Counted from the first letter of the stretch, positions 9,598 to 16,193 are shown. The stretch: DNA of 64,000 bases from an uncultured Actinomycetes bacterium (GCA_963720885.1 CAVRGW010000004.1:18674-82673); one strand, 5' to 3'. Notes: a model not told the origin generated them from the letters alone. Numbers and translations: made by a program.

Positions 9598-11034
9598 GTG
9601 GCGATAGTGGCGACACCCACCGGCGCATTCATCGGCGGCCAATGGGTCGACGGGGACGGCGAGCGGATCGACGTCCACAGCCCGTCGACCGGCGAGCTCG
9701 TGGGATCCGTGCAGGCGTCGACGCCCGCGCAGGTCGACGCCGCCGTCGCCGCGGCCAAGGCCGCATTCCCCGCCTGGCGCGCCACCTCGGTGCTGGAGCG
9801 GGTCGAGATCTGCCGCCGCGCGTTCGACATGTGCATGGAGCGCAACGAGGAGATCGCCCGGATGATCTCGATGGAGGTCGGCAAGACCATCCGCGAGTCG
9901 CGGGAGGAGATGGAGGAGTTCACGGTCGACCACTTCCGGCGGGCGTCCGAGGACGTGCTGCGGCACACCGGCGCCGTCCACCCGTCGACCCAGGAGCGGA
10001 CGACGAACAAGCGGATCCTGGTCGTCCAGGAGCCGATCGGCGTAATCGCCGCGGTCAGCCCGTGGAACTTCCCGGTGGATATCGCAGGCATCCCGATCGT
10101 GTACGGCCTGGCCCTCGGCTGCACCGTCGTCTGGAAGCCCTCCGAGTACGCGCCGCTGTGCGCCCAGATGTTCACGCAGCTGCTCTCCGACGCCGGCTTC
10201 CCGCCGGGAACGATCAACGTCGTGCACGGCCGCGGCGAGACCGGCGCCCAGGTCGTACGCCATCCGGACGTCGCCTCGATCGTGTTCACCGGCTCCGTCG
10301 AGACCGGCGAGAAGGTCGCCCGCGACGCCGGCCTCAAGAACCGGGTGCTCGAGCTGGGCGGCAACGGCCCACAGATCGTGCTGGCCGACGGCGATCTCGA
10401 GAAGGCCGCGGATGCCGCCATCGTCGGCTGCTTCTACCTCGCCGGCCAGTGCTGCACGGCGGCCGAGCGGATCCTCGTCCACTCGTCGGTCAAGGACCGG
10501 TTCGTCGAGCTGCTGGTCGAGCGGGCGCGGGGCCTGAAGGTGGGCGATCCGCTGGACGACGGCACGGACATGGGCCCGCTGTGCACGCCGGCCGTGCTGG
10601 AGCGGACGAAGCAGCACGTCGCCGACGCGGTCGACAAGGGCGCCACCGTCGTTCTCGGCGGGGGCAGCGACGGCCAGTTCCACGAGCCGACGGTGATCGA
10701 CGGCGTCACCAGCGCGATGCGGATCGCGCAGGAGGAGACGTTCGGCCCGGTCGCGCCGATCATGGCGTTCGAGACGCTGGACGAGGCGCTGGCCATCGCC
10801 AATGAGACGGAGTACGGGCTGACCGCATCCGTCTTCACCCGCTCGCTGCACGACGCGTGGAGGGCGGCGGAGGCGCTGCAGCACGGGACGGTCCACATCA
10901 ACGAGACCACGAACTACTGGGATCAGCTGGCGCCGTTCGGCGGCGCCAAGAAGTCGGGGTCGGGCCGCGAGCTGGCCGCGTGGATCATCGACGCCCTGAC
11001 CGAGACCAAGCAGATCACGTTCGATCTTGGCTAG
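9598..11034 (+). CDS. NAD(P)-dependent aldehyde dehydrogenase
   Basis: SPWNFP, KPSE, FTGS, LELGG, GQCCTA, EETFGP, PFGG.K.SG.GRE. Confidence 0.92.
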   Translation: MAIVATPTGAFIGGQWVDGDGERIDVHSPSTGELVGSVQASTPAQVDAAVAAAKAAFPAWRATSVLERVEICRRAFDMCMERNEEIARMISMEVGKTIRESREEMEEFTVDHFRRASEDVLRHTGAVHPSTQERTTNKRILVVQEPIGVIAAVSPWNFPVDIAGIPIVYGLALGCTVVWKPSEYAPLCAQMFTQLLSDAGFPPGTINVVHGRGETGAQVVRHPDVASIVFTGSVETGEKVARDAGLKNRVLELGGNGPQIVLADGDLEKAADAAIVGCFYLAGQCCTAAERILVHSSVKDRFVELLVERARGLKVGDPLDDGTDMGPLCTPAVLERTKQHVADAVDKGATVVLGGGSDGQFHEPTVIDGVTSAMRIAQEETFGPVAPIMAFETLDEALAIANETEYGLTASVFTRSLHDAWRAAEALQHGTVHINETTNYWDQLAPFGGAKKSGSGRELAAWIIDALTETKQITFDLG

Positions 11035-11326
11035 CTGTCCTGCCCACAGAGGTTGTGAATGCGGCTTTGGGGTGGTCGGTCGCCGAGGCTGCTGTGGGGC
11101 CGCTTGCGGTTGTAGTAGCGGATGAAGGATTGCAGGCTGCGGTTTCGGGTGGTTGAGTCGGGCCAGGTGTGGGCGTAGGCCGATTCGTCTTGGAGGGTGC
11201 GGATGAAGCGTTCGGCTTTGCCGTTCCAGCGGGGTGTGAAGGGTGGCGGGGTGATGTGGGTGGCGCCGATCCTGGTGAGCAGTGCGTGGAAGCGGCGGCT
11301 CTTGGTGTAGACCATGGCGTTGTCGG
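11031..11326 (-). pseudogene. IS481 transposase, C-terminal fragment
   Basis: (D)NAMVY..PFTPRWNGKAERFIRTL..YYNRKRPHSSLG, the integrase-core C-terminus. Confidence 0.9.
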
Positions 11327-11344
11327 GGCATGAAACTGCGTTGC

Positions 11345-11520
11345 GAGAGCCGTGGCCGCGGCGGGTCGTAGGATGGCCTGCCGGGGATTAGGGGCTCTTG
11401 GAGGAGCAGGATGGGTAGGCCGTGCTAACCGATGGGCTGCGAGCCCGGCGTTGTTCGTGGCCGCCCCTGCGACCCGCCCGGGTGTGCCGAGAGCACGGAT
11501 CCGTCCTTGTCGCTTTGCCC
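11345..11520 (+). ncRNA. Predicted bridge RNA of the IS110 element (boundaries approximate)
   Basis: Two stem/internal-loop/hairpin units at 11418-11462 and 11469-11513. Their loop strands match the target site and the donor junction. Confidence 0.7.
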
Positions 11521-11557
11521 ACCGTCTCCTCCGTGATCTCGACGAAGGGAGTGGTAC

Positions 11558-12892
11558 GTGGCGTTCTATGGCTTAGACGTGCATCGCGATCAGTGCGAGA
11601 TCGCGATTGCTGATCCGGATGGCGTGCGGTCTGTGGGTCGGATCGACACCAGGGTGGGTGCCGTGCGGCGCTTCGCTGAGGGACTCGGTCGTCAGGACTG
11701 GGTCGCGCTCGAGGCGACGGCTGGGGCAGATGCAATCGTGCGTCTGCTTGAGCCTCATGTCGATCGGGTGGTGGTCGTCAACACGCGTCGCCTGGATGCA
11801 ATCAGCGGCGCGAAGGTCAAGACCGACCGCCGAGATGCGCAGACGCTGGCGCGACTCTTAGCGGCTGGCCTGCTCGAGCCGGTTTGGACACCCGATGAGT
11901 CGGCTCGCGCATTGCGGCGGGTAGTGGCTCGTCGCGGAGCACTCGTTCGAGCGCGGACACGTGCCAAGAACGAAGCGCACGCGGTGCTGGCTCGTAATCT
12001 CTGCCCCCGCCCCGAGGTGACCGATGTCTTTGGTCGGGCTGGTCGGCGCTGGCTGGCAAACCTCGAGCTGCCATTCGATGAGCGGCTCACGCTGGACGGC
12101 TGCCTTCACCAGGTCGACTTCCTCCACCAGCAGATTGTCGAGTTGGATCGGATCGTGGCCGAGCGGTCGCTGGCCTCCGCGGAGATCCGCCGGCTGATCA
12201 CTGTGCCTGGCGTTAATGCCACCACCGCTGCGACCTTCATGGCCTGGATCGGCGACATTCGCCGTTTCCCATCTGCGCGGCACCTGGTGGGGTATCTCGG
12301 CCTCGATCCCCGCATCCGTCAATCAGGTGCGACACCAGCGCGGTATGGACACATCTCCAAGCAAGGCGCCTCGGAGGTCCGCCACGTGCTCGGCGAGGCG
12401 GTCTGGTCGGTAGTCGCGACGCCCGGCCCGCTGCGCGCCTTCTACCAGCGCATCCGGGCGCGGCGCGGCCCCCAGATCGCTGCCACAGCGACCGCACGCA
12501 AGCTCGCGGCGCTCTTCTGGCACCTGCTCATCCGCGGTGAGGACTACGCCTTCCAGCGGCCAGCCATGACCCGCCACAAGCTGCGACGGCTCGAGCTCAC
12601 AACCGGCGCCGCCCCACGCAAGGGACAAAAAGGCATCGCCGGCGGGAAATCCGAAGCCGTCTGGGCAGCGGAGCGTCAGCTCAGCCAGCAAGCAGAAGCC
12701 GCCTACAGCCGACTCGTCACCGATTGGCAGCCCAGTCAGCCAGCCAACACGGGTGCGGGCGCGACACAGGGGCGCGCATCCATCAGGCCCTCGAAGGGCA
12801 AAGCCGCGCGGCAGGCTGACAGCCCCAAACACCTGCACTTCGCTCCGTCAGTCACCCGCACCCAGGAGGCAGTCTCCCACGAACCGACTTGA
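11558..12892 (+). CDS. IS110-family DEDD recombinase/transposase, apparently intact
   Basis: GLDVHRD, VALEAT, KTDRRDA (DEDD), TVPGV, GYLGLDP..RQSG (catalytic Ser), ISKQG, ATARKL. RBS GAAGGGAG. Confidence 0.95.
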   Translation: MAFYGLDVHRDQCEIAIADPDGVRSVGRIDTRVGAVRRFAEGLGRQDWVALEATAGADAIVRLLEPHVDRVVVVNTRRLDAISGAKVKTDRRDAQTLARLLAAGLLEPVWTPDESARALRRVVARRGALVRARTRAKNEAHAVLARNLCPRPEVTDVFGRAGRRWLANLELPFDERLTLDGCLHQVDFLHQQIVELDRIVAERSLASAEIRRLITVPGVNATTAATFMAWIGDIRRFPSARHLVGYLGLDPRIRQSGATPARYGHISKQGASEVRHVLGEAVWSVVATPGPLRAFYQRIRARRGPQIAATATARKLAALFWHLLIRGEDYAFQRPAMTRHKLRRLELTTGAAPRKGQKGIAGGKSEAVWAAERQLSQQAEAAYSRLVTDWQPSQPANTGAGATQGRASIRPSKGKAARQADSPKHLHFAPSVTRTQEAVSHEPT

Positions 12893-12901
12893 CTTTCATC
12901 C

Positions 12902-13570
12902 GTCGGTCATCACGGCGTCGGGTGGGTCGAGGCCGAGCTGCGCATAGAAGCTGAGTGCGCGGACGAGGCAGTCGTGGTTGGTGTGTTGGTCCTCGCGGGG
13001 GTGGACTTCGGCGTAGGCAACGCGTGAGTGGTCGTCGATCACGATGTGGACGTAGTCCCAGCCGACGCGGCGGCTGCGCTTGTGTCGATCACCGGTCACG
13101 CGATGGCCAGGCTGGGTGTAGCGCGCCAACCGTTTGACGTCCATGTGCAAGAGCGCTCCCGGGCGTGACCACTCATAGCGGCGATAGGTCTGCCGCTCGC
13201 CGCGGCGACGCCGAGACACGCCATGGCGGTTGAGCACCTTCCAGATCGTTGAGCGCGGCTGGCGGACGATCCCCGCTAAGCGTCCCGGCCCCAGATTCGT
13301 CTCCCGCCGGGCCCGTAAGATCCGCTCTTCCAGCTCACCAGACAGCTGCCGCGGCGAGTGGCGCGGCCTGCTCGACCGGTCAGCCAAGCAGGCGAGCGAG
13401 CTTCGCTCTGGCTCGCTCGCCTGCCGCCAACGCTGCCACCACCGATACGCCGTCGCCGGCGACACACCACACCGCGCCGCCGCCACCCGAAACGACGCGC
13501 CCTGCTCAACCTCCCGCACCAACGCGAGCCGCCCAGCCAATCCGAGCTTGGCGTTAGCGTGCACAATCAT
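12902..13570 (-). pseudogene. IS481 transposase, N-terminal fragment
   Basis: HANAKL, DRSSRP..SP, RRYEWSRPGALLHMDVKRL, IDDHSR, ends at AVMTD. Confidence 0.92.
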
Positions 13571-13675
13571 CCGGGCCTCCCAATAGCCGTGGTCTTCGAC
13601 ACCCACAGCCTCCTGGGAGGCCCGGACGAACCCCGCCTACCCGTTCACAACGTCCGTAGGCAGCTCAGCTAGCTG

Positions 13676-14137
13676 CTACTGCGTCCAGACCAGGCACGGC
13701 GCGTTCCGGCTGACCCGCCGGGCGGCGCGGCGGTGGCGCCAGCGCCCGTACCTCGACGGATCGGGGCCGAACACCAGCAGCCCGACCTGGTGGTCGCGAG
13801 CGACCTCCATCGCAGCCCGCTCCGGCCGCGGGCTGTGGAACAGGAACTGCTCCGCCCGGACGCCGGACTCGACCGCCTGACGGACGGCGGCGGTCGCGGA
13901 ATCGAGCGTGTCCGGGTCGCCGAACGACCGCGGACCACGCGCAGCCGGGTTCACGTTCAGCGGGATCCCGTCGCAGACCATCAGCTCGCTGCCGGCGTCG
14001 CTGGCGGCGTCGATCGCGAACCGCACTGCCTCCGGCGCGAACGGCACGTTGAACGTCAGCAGCATCACTGGCTTGCCCGTCGTTCCTTCGCCCGTGCCGG
14101 CGGCCGTGGGGTCGCGGACGATGGTCGGCGTGCTCAC
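13676..14137 (-). CDS. Universal-stress-protein-like protein (module copy 1)
   Basis: GTGA overlap with the upstream gene. USP-like C-terminus LLVFGPD...VSRNAPCLVW. Paralog of 16213-16698. Confidence 0.7.
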   Translation of the reverse strand: MSTPTIVRDPTAAGTGEGTTGKPVMLLTFNVPFAPEAVRFAIDAASDAGSELMVCDGIPLNVNPAARGPRSFGDPDTLDSATAAVRQAVESGVRAEQFLFHSPRPERAAMEVARDHQVGLLVFGPDPSRYGRWRHRRAARRVSRNAPCLVWTQ

Positions 14138-14493
14138 GAGGGCTCGCCCGGCTCGATCTGGACGACCGGCACCGAGCGCAGCAGCTCGGCCTGCCCGCGC
14201 TGGAACCGCGGCAGCACCACCCGCCACCAGAACAGCGCCAGCAGCGGCACGGACAGCGCCGGGCCCTTGATGCCAAAGAAGAGGTACGTGATCAGGCCGA
14301 TGCCGATTGCGAGCACGATGCCCATCCGGATGTAGAGCCGCTGGCGGTTCGCCATCCGCCGCAGGTCGATGTAGCTGTCGTTGGAGATCTGAGACGTGTC
14401 GTACCGGCGCCCGCAGACACAGGTGATCTGCTCGCCGAGCCGCGCCTCGGACGTGTGTCCGCACTCGCAGCGAACGGTCAGGGGAACGCTCAT
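14134..14493 (-). CDS. Small Zn-ribbon-like two-TM membrane protein (module copy 1)
   Basis: CEC-x13-CVC-GRRYDTSQI followed by two hydrophobic segments. Paralog of 16695-17060. Confidence 0.72.
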   Translation of the reverse strand: MSVPLTVRCECGHTSEARLGEQITCVCGRRYDTSQISNDSYIDLRRMANRQRLYIRMGIVLAIGIGLITYLFFGIKGPALSVPLLALFWWRVVLPRFQRGQAELLRSVPVVQIEPGEPS

Positions 14494-14533
14494 TCTGGGC
14501 CAAGCATAGATGTGGGTGGAATCCCCCAGAGCA

Positions 14534-14562
14534 TTGACTCCGACCGGGACGCTCCTTAGAGT
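14534..14562 (+). promoter_or_regulatory. Sigma70-type promoter of the APC permease
   Basis: TTGACT-N17-TAGAGT. The -10 is overlapped by the inverted repeat GGGACG..CGTCCC. Confidence 0.6.
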
Positions 14563-14618
14563 CGTCCCTCTTTCCATCTTCTTCCGCCGGGCTCCAACGC
14601 CCCGAGAGGAGGTCTTCC

Positions 14619-16193
14619 ATGGCTGAAGTCGCAGTTGACGAACGACGCCTTCTGAAGACGATCAGGTGGTACGACGGGTTCGTCATCGGCCTCGCCAACC
14701 CGGGGTTCCTCCTGGTCGGTCTCGCCTACTCGGTGACCGCACTGGGTGCGAAGGTCGCCGCCATCGTCTGGTTCATCTCGGCGTGCATCGGCGCGCTTCA
14801 GGCGTACATCTACGCCGAGCCGGCGGCCATGTTCCCGGACAAGCCGGGTGGCCTGTCCGTGTACGCCCGCGAGGGCTGGCGACGGTACTTCTCGCTGGCC
14901 GGCCCGATCGCGGTGTTCGGGTACTGGTTCGCCTGGTCGAGCGTGCTCGCCGTGTACGGCGGGTTCATCGGCCTGCTGATCACTGCGGAGTTCTTCGATG
15001 CGGACTCGAGCTTCGCGACGATGAGCGACACCATCCCGATCCTCGGCTGGGACATCACCGGGCCGCGGATCATCGGTCTGATCTGCATAATGGCCTGCTA
15101 CATCTTCAACGTCCGCGGCATGCGGCCGGCCGTCTGGTTCAGCTACGTGGTCGGCGCGCTGATGCTGCTCCCGGTGGCGACGATCGCCTTCGGCGCCTTC
15201 ATCACCGGCTCGTTCAATAACTTCGCCGTCGGCAGCAACAACATCGACGCCACGAACGTCGCCTACGGCTACGGCACCAGCACGTTCGACTCGTTCGCGC
15301 TGATCATGGTCTGGCTGTACATCATCGGCTGGTCGACCTACGGCCCGGAGGCGCCTGCGACCTTCGCGCCGGAGTTCGTTGACACCAAGAACGACACCCG
15401 GATCGCCATCGCGACGACCGGTGGTCTGAACGTCGTCCTGTCGCTGCTGCTGCCGATCGCCGTGGTCGGCACCGTCGGCATCAGCGTCGTCTCCGGCGAC
15501 CTGTCCGGCGTCGTGTACTTGGTGGACGTGCTGAAGACGATCACCAACGACACGATCGGCGGGTTCCTGGTCGTCTGCCTGTGCGGCGGCCTGCTGCTGT
15601 CGATGAACACGGCGACGATGGATGGCTCGCGCGCCCTCTACGCGCTGGCCAAGGAGAAGATGACGATCAAGCAGCTGGGCACCCTGAACACGCACCACGT
15701 GCCCGCCAGGGCGATGACGCTCGACCTGCTGATGAACATCTTCCTGCTGATGGCCTTCCCGAGCATCTTCTTCGTGCTCGCGGCGGGCAACCTCGGCTAC
15801 ATGCTCTCGCACGTGCTCGCCCTGTCGGGTTTCCTGCTCCTGCGCAAGGACCGGCCGACCTGGCCGCGCCCGCTCAAGCTGGGGCCGATCTGGGTGGCGC
15901 TGGCAGGCATCTTCTGCGTGGCGAACCTGCTGTTCATCATCTTCGGCGTCGCGCGCCTGAAGGAGACCGGGTACGCGTTCAACGACGCGTTCACCGACCC
16001 GACGGCGTACCTGAACCGGATCATCATCGTCGGCGTCGCCGCACTGGCGGCCGGCGTGCTCGGCTACATCATCGCCCAGCGCCAGCACGGCAAGCCGTTC
16101 AGCTGGCGTGACCCGAGCGACGAGGGACCGTCGCCCGAGGTCTACGAGCTGATGGGCACGCCGCAGCCCAGCGCCGCGGCGGTCGGCGACTGA
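14619..16193 (+). CDS. APC-superfamily amino acid/amine permease (module copy 1)
   Basis: About 12 hydrophobic segments. YAEPAAMFP..PGG, YGPE..ATFAPE, DGSRALY, RPLKL. GAGGAGG RBS. Confidence 0.9.
   Translation: MAEVAVDERRLLKTIRWYDGFVIGLANPGFLLVGLAYSVTALGAKVAAIVWFISACIGALQAYIYAEPAAMFPDKPGGLSVYAREGWRRYFSLAGPIAVFGYWFAWSSVLAVYGGFIGLLITAEFFDADSSFATMSDTIPILGWDITGPRIIGLICIMACYIFNVRGMRPAVWFSYVVGALMLLPVATIAFGAFITGSFNNFAVGSNNIDATNVAYGYGTSTFDSFALIMVWLYIIGWSTYGPEAPATFAPEFVDTKNDTRIAIATTGGLNVVLSLLLPIAVVGTVGISVVSGDLSGVVYLVDVLKTITNDTIGGFLVVCLCGGLLLSMNTATMDGSRALYALAKEKMTIKQLGTLNTHHVPARAMTLDLLMNIFLLMAFPSIFFVLAAGNLGYMLSHVLALSGFLLLRKDRPTWPRPLKLGPIWVALAGIFCVANLLFIIFGVARLKETGYAFNDAFTDPTAYLNRIIIVGVAALAAGVLGYIIAQRQHGKPFSWRDPSDEGPSPEVYELMGTPQPSAAAVGD

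Follow-up and report, generated by a model that had tools for sequence, protein, structure and literature searches.

Why does an insertion sequence of the IS110 family lie inside a presumed catalytic aspartate codon of another transposon's transposase gene? The question is raised by a window of 64,000 nucleotides (the whole stretch of DNA that was analysed) from an uncultured Actinomycetes bacterium, which an earlier note had read as an IS110 element nested in an IS481 element. We found the nested arrangement to be correct at every coordinate, i.e. for the GCTAGC pair, the GTCGG pair, the 1580 bp of the insert, and the 1052 bp of its host. As set out below, we consider it highly probable from the sequence that the insert is an intact IS110 element with a bridge/seekRNA-type leader RNA that is programmed onto second-Asp codons of IS481 transposases. 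From left to right, the locus contains the following features:

9598..11034, plus strand: aldehyde dehydrogenase gene (open reading frame; Pfam Aldedh, E 3.4e-156)
11030..11035: left target duplication GCTAGC, 6 bp (sequence)
11036..11324, minus strand: left part of the IS481-family element, with a terminal inverted repeat and the C-terminal 97 transposase codons (D-N-A-M-V-Y...; rve_3, E 5.7e-17; NF033577 profile positions 195-284)
11323..11324: left copy of the core dinucleotide TC (junction comparison of the window with loci L021-L024)
11325..12904, plus strand: IS110-family element, 1580 bp with one core copy counted (Pfam, NCBIfam, and junctions; contigs of three runs lack precisely this length)
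11325..11557, plus strand: left end and non-coding leader with the candidate bridge/seekRNA (conserved scaffold, consensus structure)
11332..11337, plus strand: GAAACT, a -10-like hexamer (read from the sequence; position conserved across clades)
11558..12892, plus strand: intact gene for an IS110-family RNA-guided transposase of 444 aa (DEDD_Tnp_IS110, Transposase_20; NF033542)
12889..12902, plus strand: short right end, TTGACTTTCATCCG (motif shared with relatives)
12903..12904: right copy of the core dinucleotide TC (junction comparison)
12905..13667, minus strand: right part of the IS481-family element, with the N-terminal transposase codons (ATG at 13570, last codons ...V-M-T-D) and a terminal inverted repeat (HTH_28, LZ_Tnp_IS481, rve profile positions 3-73 of 102; NF033577 positions 1-195)
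13668..13673: right target duplication GCTAGC, 6 bp (sequence)
13676..14698, minus strand: convergent neighbour gene with a universal-stress-protein domain (open reading frame; Pfam Usp, E 9.4e-06)

The host element occupies 11036-13667 and measures 1052 bp without the 1580-bp insert, and a comparison of its ends showed them to be alike, as imperfect inverted repeats of the IS481 type. Its transposase reading frame (13570..11031 less 1580 bp) comes to 960 nt, or 319 codons and a stop, so that the uninterrupted 319-aa frame claimed for the element without its insert is indeed present. The minus-strand TAG stop of this frame (11031-11033) comes from the left GCTAGC. The same duplication contains the TAG stop of the aldehyde dehydrogenase (11032-11034), and the insertion of the IS481 element left that stop unchanged, as the note had also said. 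On the other side, the stop codon of the Usp-domain neighbour lies 2 nt past the right GCTAGC.

Elements of the IS481 family are described in the IS481/IS1002 literature as being about 1 kb long, with imperfect terminal inverted repeats and a 6-bp NCTAGN target duplication. In the same genome, another IS481-family element is present in four copies, whose duplications are CCTAGG, CCTAGG, CCTAGC, and TCTAGG, all of them NCTAGN. The two halves of the interrupted transposase scored 149.9 and 84.6 bits against NF033577 (a rough sum of 234.5, with the cut-off of 224 bits being set for the whole protein and not applicable to the halves of a split gene), versus 30.6 and 55.4 bits against the IS3 model, which makes the IS481 model the best one for both halves. 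LZ_Tnp_IS481 matched the N-terminal half with 33.4 bits (cut-off 22.2). Taken as sequence evidence, these data point to a host of the IS481 family and not of the IS3 family.

On the minus strand the insert is flanked by ...D-A-V-M-T-D and D-N-A-M-V-Y..., in one shared frame. The break at V-M-T-D|N-A was correctly located by the earlier note, and it corresponds to rve profile position 73 of 102 and to NF033577 position 195. A phmmer search of the N-terminal half against the PDB gave weak helix-turn-helix matches only, and we therefore used a profile of three intact IS481-family transposases from this genome. The t-d-n-g of this profile aligns to the S-D-N-G / T-D-N-A stretch of retroviral integrase cores, and we take the Asp at the break to be the second catalytic residue of the D-D-E triad.

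The insert itself has the anatomy of a complete IS110 element. Its transposase matches DEDD_Tnp_IS110 (E 2.5e-15), Transposase_20 (E 6e-22), and NF033542 (229.8 bits, cut-off 140), and is preceded by 233 nt of non-coding sequence and followed by 10 nt. The element lacks terminal inverted repeats, and nothing but the core is duplicated at the target. GTCGG is found at 11322-11326 and again at 12902-12906, 1580 bp apart; the two junctions have only the core and coincident neighbours in common. The last two bases of the Asp codon are the left core TC (GA in the minus-strand reading). Among relatives the core is TC or TA, and of 53 elements seen with both of their junctions, 51 have one and the same core at the two, the exceptions in register being L061 and L062. 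Allowing at most 3 mismatches, we recognised the right-end motif in 63 of 85 sources, in which the metagenome loci are the best 80 of 517 relatives. A -35-like TTGACT in this right end overlaps the transposase stop codon, and the -10-like hexamer of the left end reads GAAACT, GAGAAT, or GACAAT across clades. TTGACT and GAAACT come to lie 17 nt apart only when the ends are joined as a circle, and by analogy to IS621 and ISEc21 they would form a promoter solely across the circle junction.

The earlier note had suggested PCR or a read search for the IS481 element without its insert. Such an empty site is present in contigs of three public runs (X20, X21, and X23), which join 11321 directly to 12902 and thereby skip 1580 bp; the runs stem from two studies, and one may be the window's own source. 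Two of these contigs, of 610 nt and 595 nt, each show 0+1 differences from the IS481 element of the window. In 40 related genomes (41 with G000), a search for the empty site found no close copy of this IS481 element, only matches of 26-37 nt around the motif.

We then considered where related elements are inserted, as a non-random sample in which the metagenome loci are the best 80 of 517 relatives. A GTTGT-type guide or flank is present in 32 of the 85 sources. At these loci all left flank pieces (29/29) read D-N-(G/A), with two at contig ends stopping at D-N, and all right flank pieces (22/22) have a terminal D, with T before it in 20, S in one, and N in one. The 41 of 51 flank pieces from the clade of the window element that are at least 35 aa long were scanned against Pfam, and 37 of them matched rve, rve_2, or rve_3. 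Five N-terminal pieces end, and eleven C-terminal pieces start, at rve position 73 of 102, and LZ_Tnp_IS481 was found in 10 of 17 N-terminal pieces. Altogether, the junction of the window element recurs at an identical rve profile position in 29 of the 31 related loci whose flanks were scanned against Pfam. An exception to the rve pattern is L067, with an IS630-type (DDE_3) reading frame as its left flank, and no Pfam match was obtained for flank pieces of L077 and L089 (41 aa each) or L092 (96 aa). The recurrence of the junction at one rve position, together with contigs that skip the exact insert, argues that the placement is not due to chance. This comparison of the flanks of other IS110 copies, another check proposed in the note, placed the insertions of the clade in IS481/rve genes and bore out the claim that a conserved motif of another transposon serves as landing site, the specificity of which the guide segments described next would explain.

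Guide segments in the leader RNA were absent from the earlier note. The segments that we identified are:

11426..11432, plus strand: right-target guide UAACCGA, 5' strand of the target loop (pairs with top-strand 12903-12909, i.e. the core and GGTCA, with one A.C mismatch)
11433..11447, plus strand: hairpin capping the target-binding loop (covariation in the consensus fold)
11448..11455, plus strand: left-target guide GCGUUGUU, 3' strand of the target loop (equals top-strand 11317-11324; the last position forms a U.G wobble with the bottom strand)
11483..11497, plus strand: hairpin of the donor-binding part (covariation in the consensus fold)
11499..11505, plus strand: left-donor guide AUCCGUC (equals the right end and core, 12898-12904)

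A conserved leader scaffold was found in 72 of the 85 sources (best 80 of 517 metagenome relatives), and a consensus fold was built from 58 of 63 distinct leaders. In this fold, columns 139/151 of the target-loop hairpin are G-C in 37 and A-U in 21 of the 58 leaders, and columns 194/207 of the donor-part hairpin are U-A in 33 and C-G in 25. Both capping hairpins thus stay paired despite double changes (21/58 and 25/58 leaders). The single-sequence fold of 11395-11525 was no better than that of shuffled sequences (z = -0.85), a value that carries no information at such a G+C content, and a scan of 10900-13800 against Rfam gave no family at E values up to 1.

Importantly, in the window and four relatives from the genome collection, differences in flanks and core are accompanied by differences in both loop strands and in the donor segment, and guides covary with flanks across 84 related loci (metagenome loci being the best 80 of 517 relatives). 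With a maximum of 9 positions, cognate guides and flanks paired on average at 6.67 positions for 61 left flanks and at 6.92 for 52 right flanks, versus 4.33 and 4.76 for non-cognate combinations. Guides of about twenty classes each fit the flanks of their own elements, to the left as well as to the right of the core. The last base of the left-donor guide changes from C to A as the core goes from TC to TA in other clades. For the right-donor guide, the complementarity is only partial: the candidates in several registers, with 4-6 matches each, are unconvincing, and the columns expected to contain it are predicted to pair elsewhere. These patterns support the view of the leader as a candidate bridge/seekRNA with segments complementary to both target strands.

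In the proposed mechanism, the leader RNA would form an internal loop, capped by a hairpin, with two guide strands. Its 3' strand would carry the sequence of the left target and core and hence pair with the bottom strand, and the other strand would pair with the right target. Together they would specify a left half GGCGTTG, the core TC, and a right half GGTCA. Read on the opposite strand, this guided target would correspond to the codons (M)-T-D-N-A of an IS481 transposase with the second Asp of D-D-E, and insertion would occur in the catalytic Asp codon because the guide RNA spells that conserved stretch. The donor guide would be a second segment that repeats the element's own right end and core. 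Recombination at the TC core would proceed in one fixed orientation without duplication beyond the core, separating the second Asp of the integrase-core domain from its Glu and so inactivating the host IS481 element. By analogy to work on IS621 and ISEc21, the leader RNA would be made and bound by the recombinase, and the element would move via a circular intermediate.

Could the nesting have been created by the assembly, with IS110 and IS481 never joined in the cell? The filled junctions rest on the assembly, and the public runs examined add no support: among the listed contigs of X1, X20, X21, and X23, none bridges a filled junction by at least 31 letters, which is uninformative either way. 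However, the two junction sequences of the window were also found in L021 and in about 30 metagenome contigs, which are independent assemblies; each junction is in frame and has the same core; and contigs of other runs skip exactly 1580 bp, all of which leaves an artefact with a negligible probability. Scarcely more probable is an old composite, in which IS110 entered one ancestral IS481 a single time and the pair was inherited and diverged as a unit, the shared junction reflecting descent. In the transposase tree, elements with TDNG-type guides do fall together as one group (25 rows, SH-aLRT 100), and clusters of at least 80% identity are seen among some of the host flanks. Against common descent of the pair, L075, L077, and L080 contain IS110 copies that are 97-99% identical in host flanks that are only 65-73% identical, so these insertions are independent; likewise, IS identity and flank identity are uncorrelated (r = 0.05, 276 pairs). 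The recurrence at one profile position thus extends over many independent hosts. In addition, the halves of the host reading frame are still open, which is unexpected in a long-dead gene, the same IS481 exists without insert (0-1 differences over ~600 nt), and the guides match the target.

A different possibility is that the protein or the structure of the DNA recognises the target and that RNA complementarity is incidental. No RNA run contained the stretch, and ISPpu10 is reported in a 2026 preprint to need a structural match besides sequence (10.64898/2026.03.19.712850). Furthermore, the corresponding sites in six intact IS481-family copies of the same genome, which pair at 8-9 of 9 and 7 of 9 positions, are all empty. 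As IS110 is present as a single copy in this genome, the empty near-cognate sites mean either that pairing counts alone do not predict occupancy or that the element is hardly active here. We nevertheless regard incidental complementarity as very improbable, since about twenty guide classes fit their flanks on either side of the core and since the reprogramming of IS621 and ISEc21 is reported to show that the RNA decides the site (PMC11208160, PMC11187229). Somewhat less improbable, but still unlikely, is a reversible switch, in which IS110 insertion silences the IS481 transposase and excision restores its activity. The same IS481 is found in an empty and in a filled form, and scarless loss is possible in principle because insertion adds no bases beyond the core. 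On the other hand, excision of IS621 is described as less efficient than insertion (PMC13626964), or, in a preprint, as mainly single-stranded with the donor site left intact (10.64898/2026.08.31.748434). These reports also qualify the earlier note's expectation that the host element would be restored by precise excision. Moreover, the empty form may never have been occupied, and nothing indicates that such a switch has been selected for.

RNA-guided targeting of second-Asp codons, the reading that we prefer, can be compared with several known systems. IS4321/IS5075 and the IS1111-attC group are IS1111-type elements that insert site-specifically into a conserved feature of other mobile elements, namely terminal repeats or attC sites, and their non-coding region lies downstream. 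Unlike in these elements, the sequence hit here encodes a catalytic motif and the non-coding region lies upstream. The closest precedent is ISEc21, an element directed at the codons of the second Asp in transposases of the IS3 family (Siddiquee et al. 2024, Nat Commun; PMC11187229), so the present element joins a known kind. According to the same report, ISEc21 inserts in one orientation without duplication, a promoter arises across its circle junction, and the part of its seekRNA that matches the top strand is located 3' of the part that matches the bottom strand. Our element is likewise IS110-type, with an upstream non-coding region and the same order of matches. As judged by the published description of ISEc21, the two differ in their hosts, which are IS3-family elements in enterobacteria for ISEc21 and IS481-family elements in soil and sediment metagenomes here. 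A search of E. coli genomes with the window IS110, made for this comparison, gave no DNA match. A literature search found no IS110 element inside IS481-family genes, and the second-D idea in Siddiquee et al. only. The targeting principle was therefore already published for ISEc21, and our sequence data apparently extend it to IS481 hosts.

IS621 (Durrant et al. 2024, PMC11208160; Hiraizumi et al. 2024 and 2026) is similar in its DEDD recombinase and its 5' non-coding RNA with target and donor loops. In the IS621 model the LTG pairs with the bottom strand on the left and the RTG with the top strand on the right, core included (PMC11208160), and here too the left guides would pair with the bottom strand and the right guides with the top strand, with a core dinucleotide common to donor and target. 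Unlike IS621, which is described as targeting REP elements with a CT core, our element has a TC core (TA in sister clades) and a target in coding sequence.

On a wider scale, we tentatively suggest, as a reading only slightly less probable than its opposite, that these elements belong to an old and diverse lineage of bridge-RNA IS110 elements specialised as IS parasites. One clade would have kept T-D-N-G guides on IS481 transposases, and sister clades would have re-written theirs towards H-Y-N-x-x-R-P-H codons near the C-terminus of rve transposases, an apparent terminal repeat of another element, or REP-like palindromes. If true, this lineage would represent a natural series of guide reprogramming events, and its members would be sequence-specific suppressors of IS481 expansion in soil bacteria. 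The window element adds to ISEc21 a second natural case, apparently in a different host family, of RNA-guided IS homing on codons of a transposon catalytic motif. Conserved coding motifs of mobile elements offer safe, repeated, and horizontally travelling landing pads, and part of the IS481 load of soil bacteria is inactivated by such insertions. For genome annotation, this accounts for 'split' IS481 transposase pseudogenes as a class. The dozens of independent insertions, together with several sister clades that carry other guides, make a ready-made comparative set, from which one could learn how guides pair with targets, how the core is chosen (TC or TA), and which mismatches bridge recombinases tolerate.

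For the GGTGTA clade, two candidate targets were rejected. ARAGORN found no tRNA in 10 loci tested for a tRNA 3' end as the conserved left flank, and a coding motif was dropped because the flanks match unrelated families (DDE_3, weak IstB, Eco57I) or nothing. Finally, the best relatives of the window IS110 in the plasmid collection share 48-50% protein identity with it and are annotated simply as IS110 family.

The earlier note described an IS110-family element nested in an IS481-family element, and this description agrees with the sequence of the window.

Landmarks of the nested pair
9598-11034, aldehyde dehydrogenase ORF (Aldedh, E 3.4e-156), whose stop is the TAG inside the left GCTAGC
11030-11035 and 13668-13673, GCTAGC duplications flanking the IS481-family element
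11322-11326 and 12902-12906, GTCGG copies, 1580 bp apart

The ends of the IS481-family element are imperfect inverted repeats, and its minus-strand transposase is divided in two by the insert. On the minus strand, the right flank closes with ...D-A-V-M-T-D and the left flank resumes with D-N-A-M-V-Y-T-K in an unchanged frame; minus the insert, the host element measures 1052 bp with an ORF of 319 codons. The insert encodes a 444-aa product with the Pfam domains DEDD_Tnp_IS110 and Transposase_20, which scores 229.8 bits (cut-off 140) against NF033542, 'IS110 family RNA-guided transposase'. The N half of the host transposase carries HTH domains, LZ_Tnp_IS481 and rve, the C half rve_3, and the two halves cover positions 1-195 and 195-284 of the IS481 family profile NF033577. 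Both elements are single-copy in the window's genome, where about nine IS481-family relatives (37-48% protein identity) were found.

The same note had placed the IS481 on the TAG stop of the aldehyde dehydrogenase gene, and the ORF does terminate there. Another IS481-family element, present in four copies in this genome, has 6-bp duplications CCTAGG, CCTAGG, CCTAGC and TCTAGG, so that a CTAG-centred target is the rule here and explains the placement on a TAG stop. The transposase ORF of the window's IS481 itself reads through the terminal repeat, and its stop is the TAG (11031-11033) within the duplicated CTAG; the same was seen in each of the four copies of a 1025-bp IS481-family element (L006, L009, L010, L011; G000 C4/C5/C6). 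The target site thus provides the stop codon. The genome holds a second, unrelated nested IS (G000:C6:366300-369300, L113), in which an IS481-family copy is interrupted by an IS256/Mutator-family transposase gene with Transposase_mut across two overlapping ORFs.

We compared the Logan contigs of four public sequencing runs with window positions 10700-14000. The empty IS481 site, for which the earlier note proposed a read search, was found: contigs in three runs from two studies, one of which may be the window's own source, link 11321 to 12902 (1580 bp skipped, 5 ambiguous letters). The informative ones are a 610-nt contig (run X21, record 17) with 0 and 1 differences on its two sides, and a second of 595 nt (run X23, record 26). 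These contigs represent the uninterrupted IS481. Published work gives no settled answer on whether IS110 loss would restore the IS481 gene (PMC13626964; 10.64898/2026.08.31.748434). One further X21 contig, showing 17 differences over 158 nt, passes from 11034 to 13676 through four other letters, so that the aldehyde dehydrogenase stop directly adjoins the neighbouring stress-protein gene; it comes from a related organism without the IS481 element.

The genome collection gave four relatives of the IS110 transposase (L021-L024; 56-61% protein identity). The host of L021 is an IS481 relative that shares just 52% and 47% identity with the two halves in the window, and both its junction sequences are the same as the window's, at M-T-D/N-A; L022, L023 and L024 are sited elsewhere. 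When the 200-nt leaders of the window element and these relatives were aligned, a conserved scaffold became apparent in which two variable strands flank a hairpin. The 3' strand of this loop copies the left flank as far as the core (the dinucleotide common to both junctions), and the 5' strand is the complement of the core plus right flank; in L022, L023 and L024 both strands differ in step with the flanks. A further leader segment, AUCCGU plus core, is a copy of the right end, and its last base switches with the core (TC or TA). According to PMC11208160, published bridge RNAs have a left guide pairing with the bottom strand and a right guide pairing with the top strand, core included, and the predicted guides of the window leader have this same geometry.

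We widened the sample with a metagenome scan using an alignment of four transposases as query; of 517 confirmed relatives, the best 80 were used, giving 85 sources (the window and 84 loci). In this sample the loop scaffold was present in 72 of 85 sources and the right-end motif in 63 of 85, the misses lying mostly at contig ends. About twenty guide classes were distinguished, each fitting its own flanks: cognate guide-flank pairing averaged 6.67 for left (n=61) and 6.92 for right flanks (n=52), with a maximum of 9 positions, against 4.33 and 4.76 for non-cognate pairing. RNAalifold was run on 58 of 63 distinct leaders, leaving out L061, L062 and L065 (long extra segments, unclear ends) as well as L080 and L090, both near-copies of L075. 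In the predicted fold the guide loop is closed by a stem, GGCCG/UGGCC. Two hairpins are also predicted: the capping one switches from G-C to A-U in 21 of 58 sequences, the other from U-A to C-G in 25 of 58.

The window element belongs to a clade of 32 of the 85 sources, 31 with a GTTGT-type left guide and one (L094) with the matching flank only, here called the TDNG clade. The core fixed the frame in which flanks were translated. All 29 left pieces began with D-N-G or D-N-A (two, at a contig end, stop at D-N), and all 22 right pieces ended in D; the residue before it was T in 20 pieces, S in one and N in one. That other insertions would also lie in IS481/rve genes was borne out by a Pfam scan of the pieces of at least 35 aa (41 of 51; L102 fell below that length), in which 37 of 41 matched rve, rve_2 or rve_3; L077 and L089 (41 aa each) and L092 (96 aa) gave no Pfam match. 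Position 73 of 102 in the rve profile was the end of five N pieces and the start of eleven C pieces, and LZ_Tnp_IS481 was present in 10 of 17 N pieces. When three intact IS481-family transposases from the same genome were combined into a profile, its t-d-n-g aligned with the S-D-N-G/T-D-N-A of retroviral integrase cores, in which this Asp is the second catalytic residue. An exception within the clade is L067, whose left flank (2-628) holds an IS630-type DDE_3 ORF in frame from D-N-G. On the right side of L068, its near-twin, lies an rve gene; the DDE_3 flank may reflect a fortuitous site or else rearrangement between two insertions.

Common descent of one ancient insertion would be an alternative source of this uniformity. 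However, the IS110 copies of L075, L077 and L080 are 97-99% identical in host flanks that are 65-73% identical, IS identity and flank identity were uncorrelated (r = 0.05, 276 pairs of clade loci with enough flank), and 24 left flanks fell into 12 clusters at 80% identity. The insertions are independent events, not descent. A quick IQ-TREE analysis covered the 50 of 85 rows in which the scaffold had been found and the ORF reached 330 aa or more. The 25 elements with TDNG guides formed one group in this tree (SH-aLRT 100), and the window element branched deeply, sharing at most 70% identity with any other row; the specialisation on these codons therefore appears old. In the window's genome, no site lies within one mismatch of the rebuilt 16-nt target. 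Six intact IS481-family genes there (L005, four copies of L006, and L007) have T-D-N-G or S-D-N-A sites at which pairing with the window's guides is about as good as at the occupied one, yet these sites are empty.

According to Siddiquee et al. (PMC11187229), ISEc21 targets the second-Asp codons of IS3-family transposase genes, and its upstream non-coding RNA is required and reprogrammable; the window element would work the same way, but on IS481-family hosts. Our literature searches found no paper on an IS110 element in IS481-family genes. What is new beyond the ISEc21 case is the large natural series of independent insertions, together with re-targeted sister clades.

One sister clade (L054, L059, L060, L098) has a TA core and sits close to the C-terminal end of rve-type transposases, in H-Y/N-x-x-R-P-H codons, the L098 flank matching rve 3-102 and rve_3 1-53 of 67. 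Here the landing site is a second conserved transposase motif. Members of another clade, whose left guide is ..GGUGUA (left flanks of L022, L023, L025-L036, L039, L042 and L053), are always found 24 nt within a conserved block, AGTCAAGTCCCGGGACGTGGTGTA, at which ARAGORN found no tRNA in 10 loci. DNA left of the block is unrelated among loci and that to its right partly related; the block resembles a terminal repeat belonging to some other mobile element. The targets of a further clade (L024, L031, L037, L038, L040, L043, L045-L048, L051, L052, L055, L083) are short palindromes with a left half ..GCTTT, a TC core and, as right half, either GCGCAAAGC.. or GTCCAAAGC..; they are REP-like, the classical IS110 habit.
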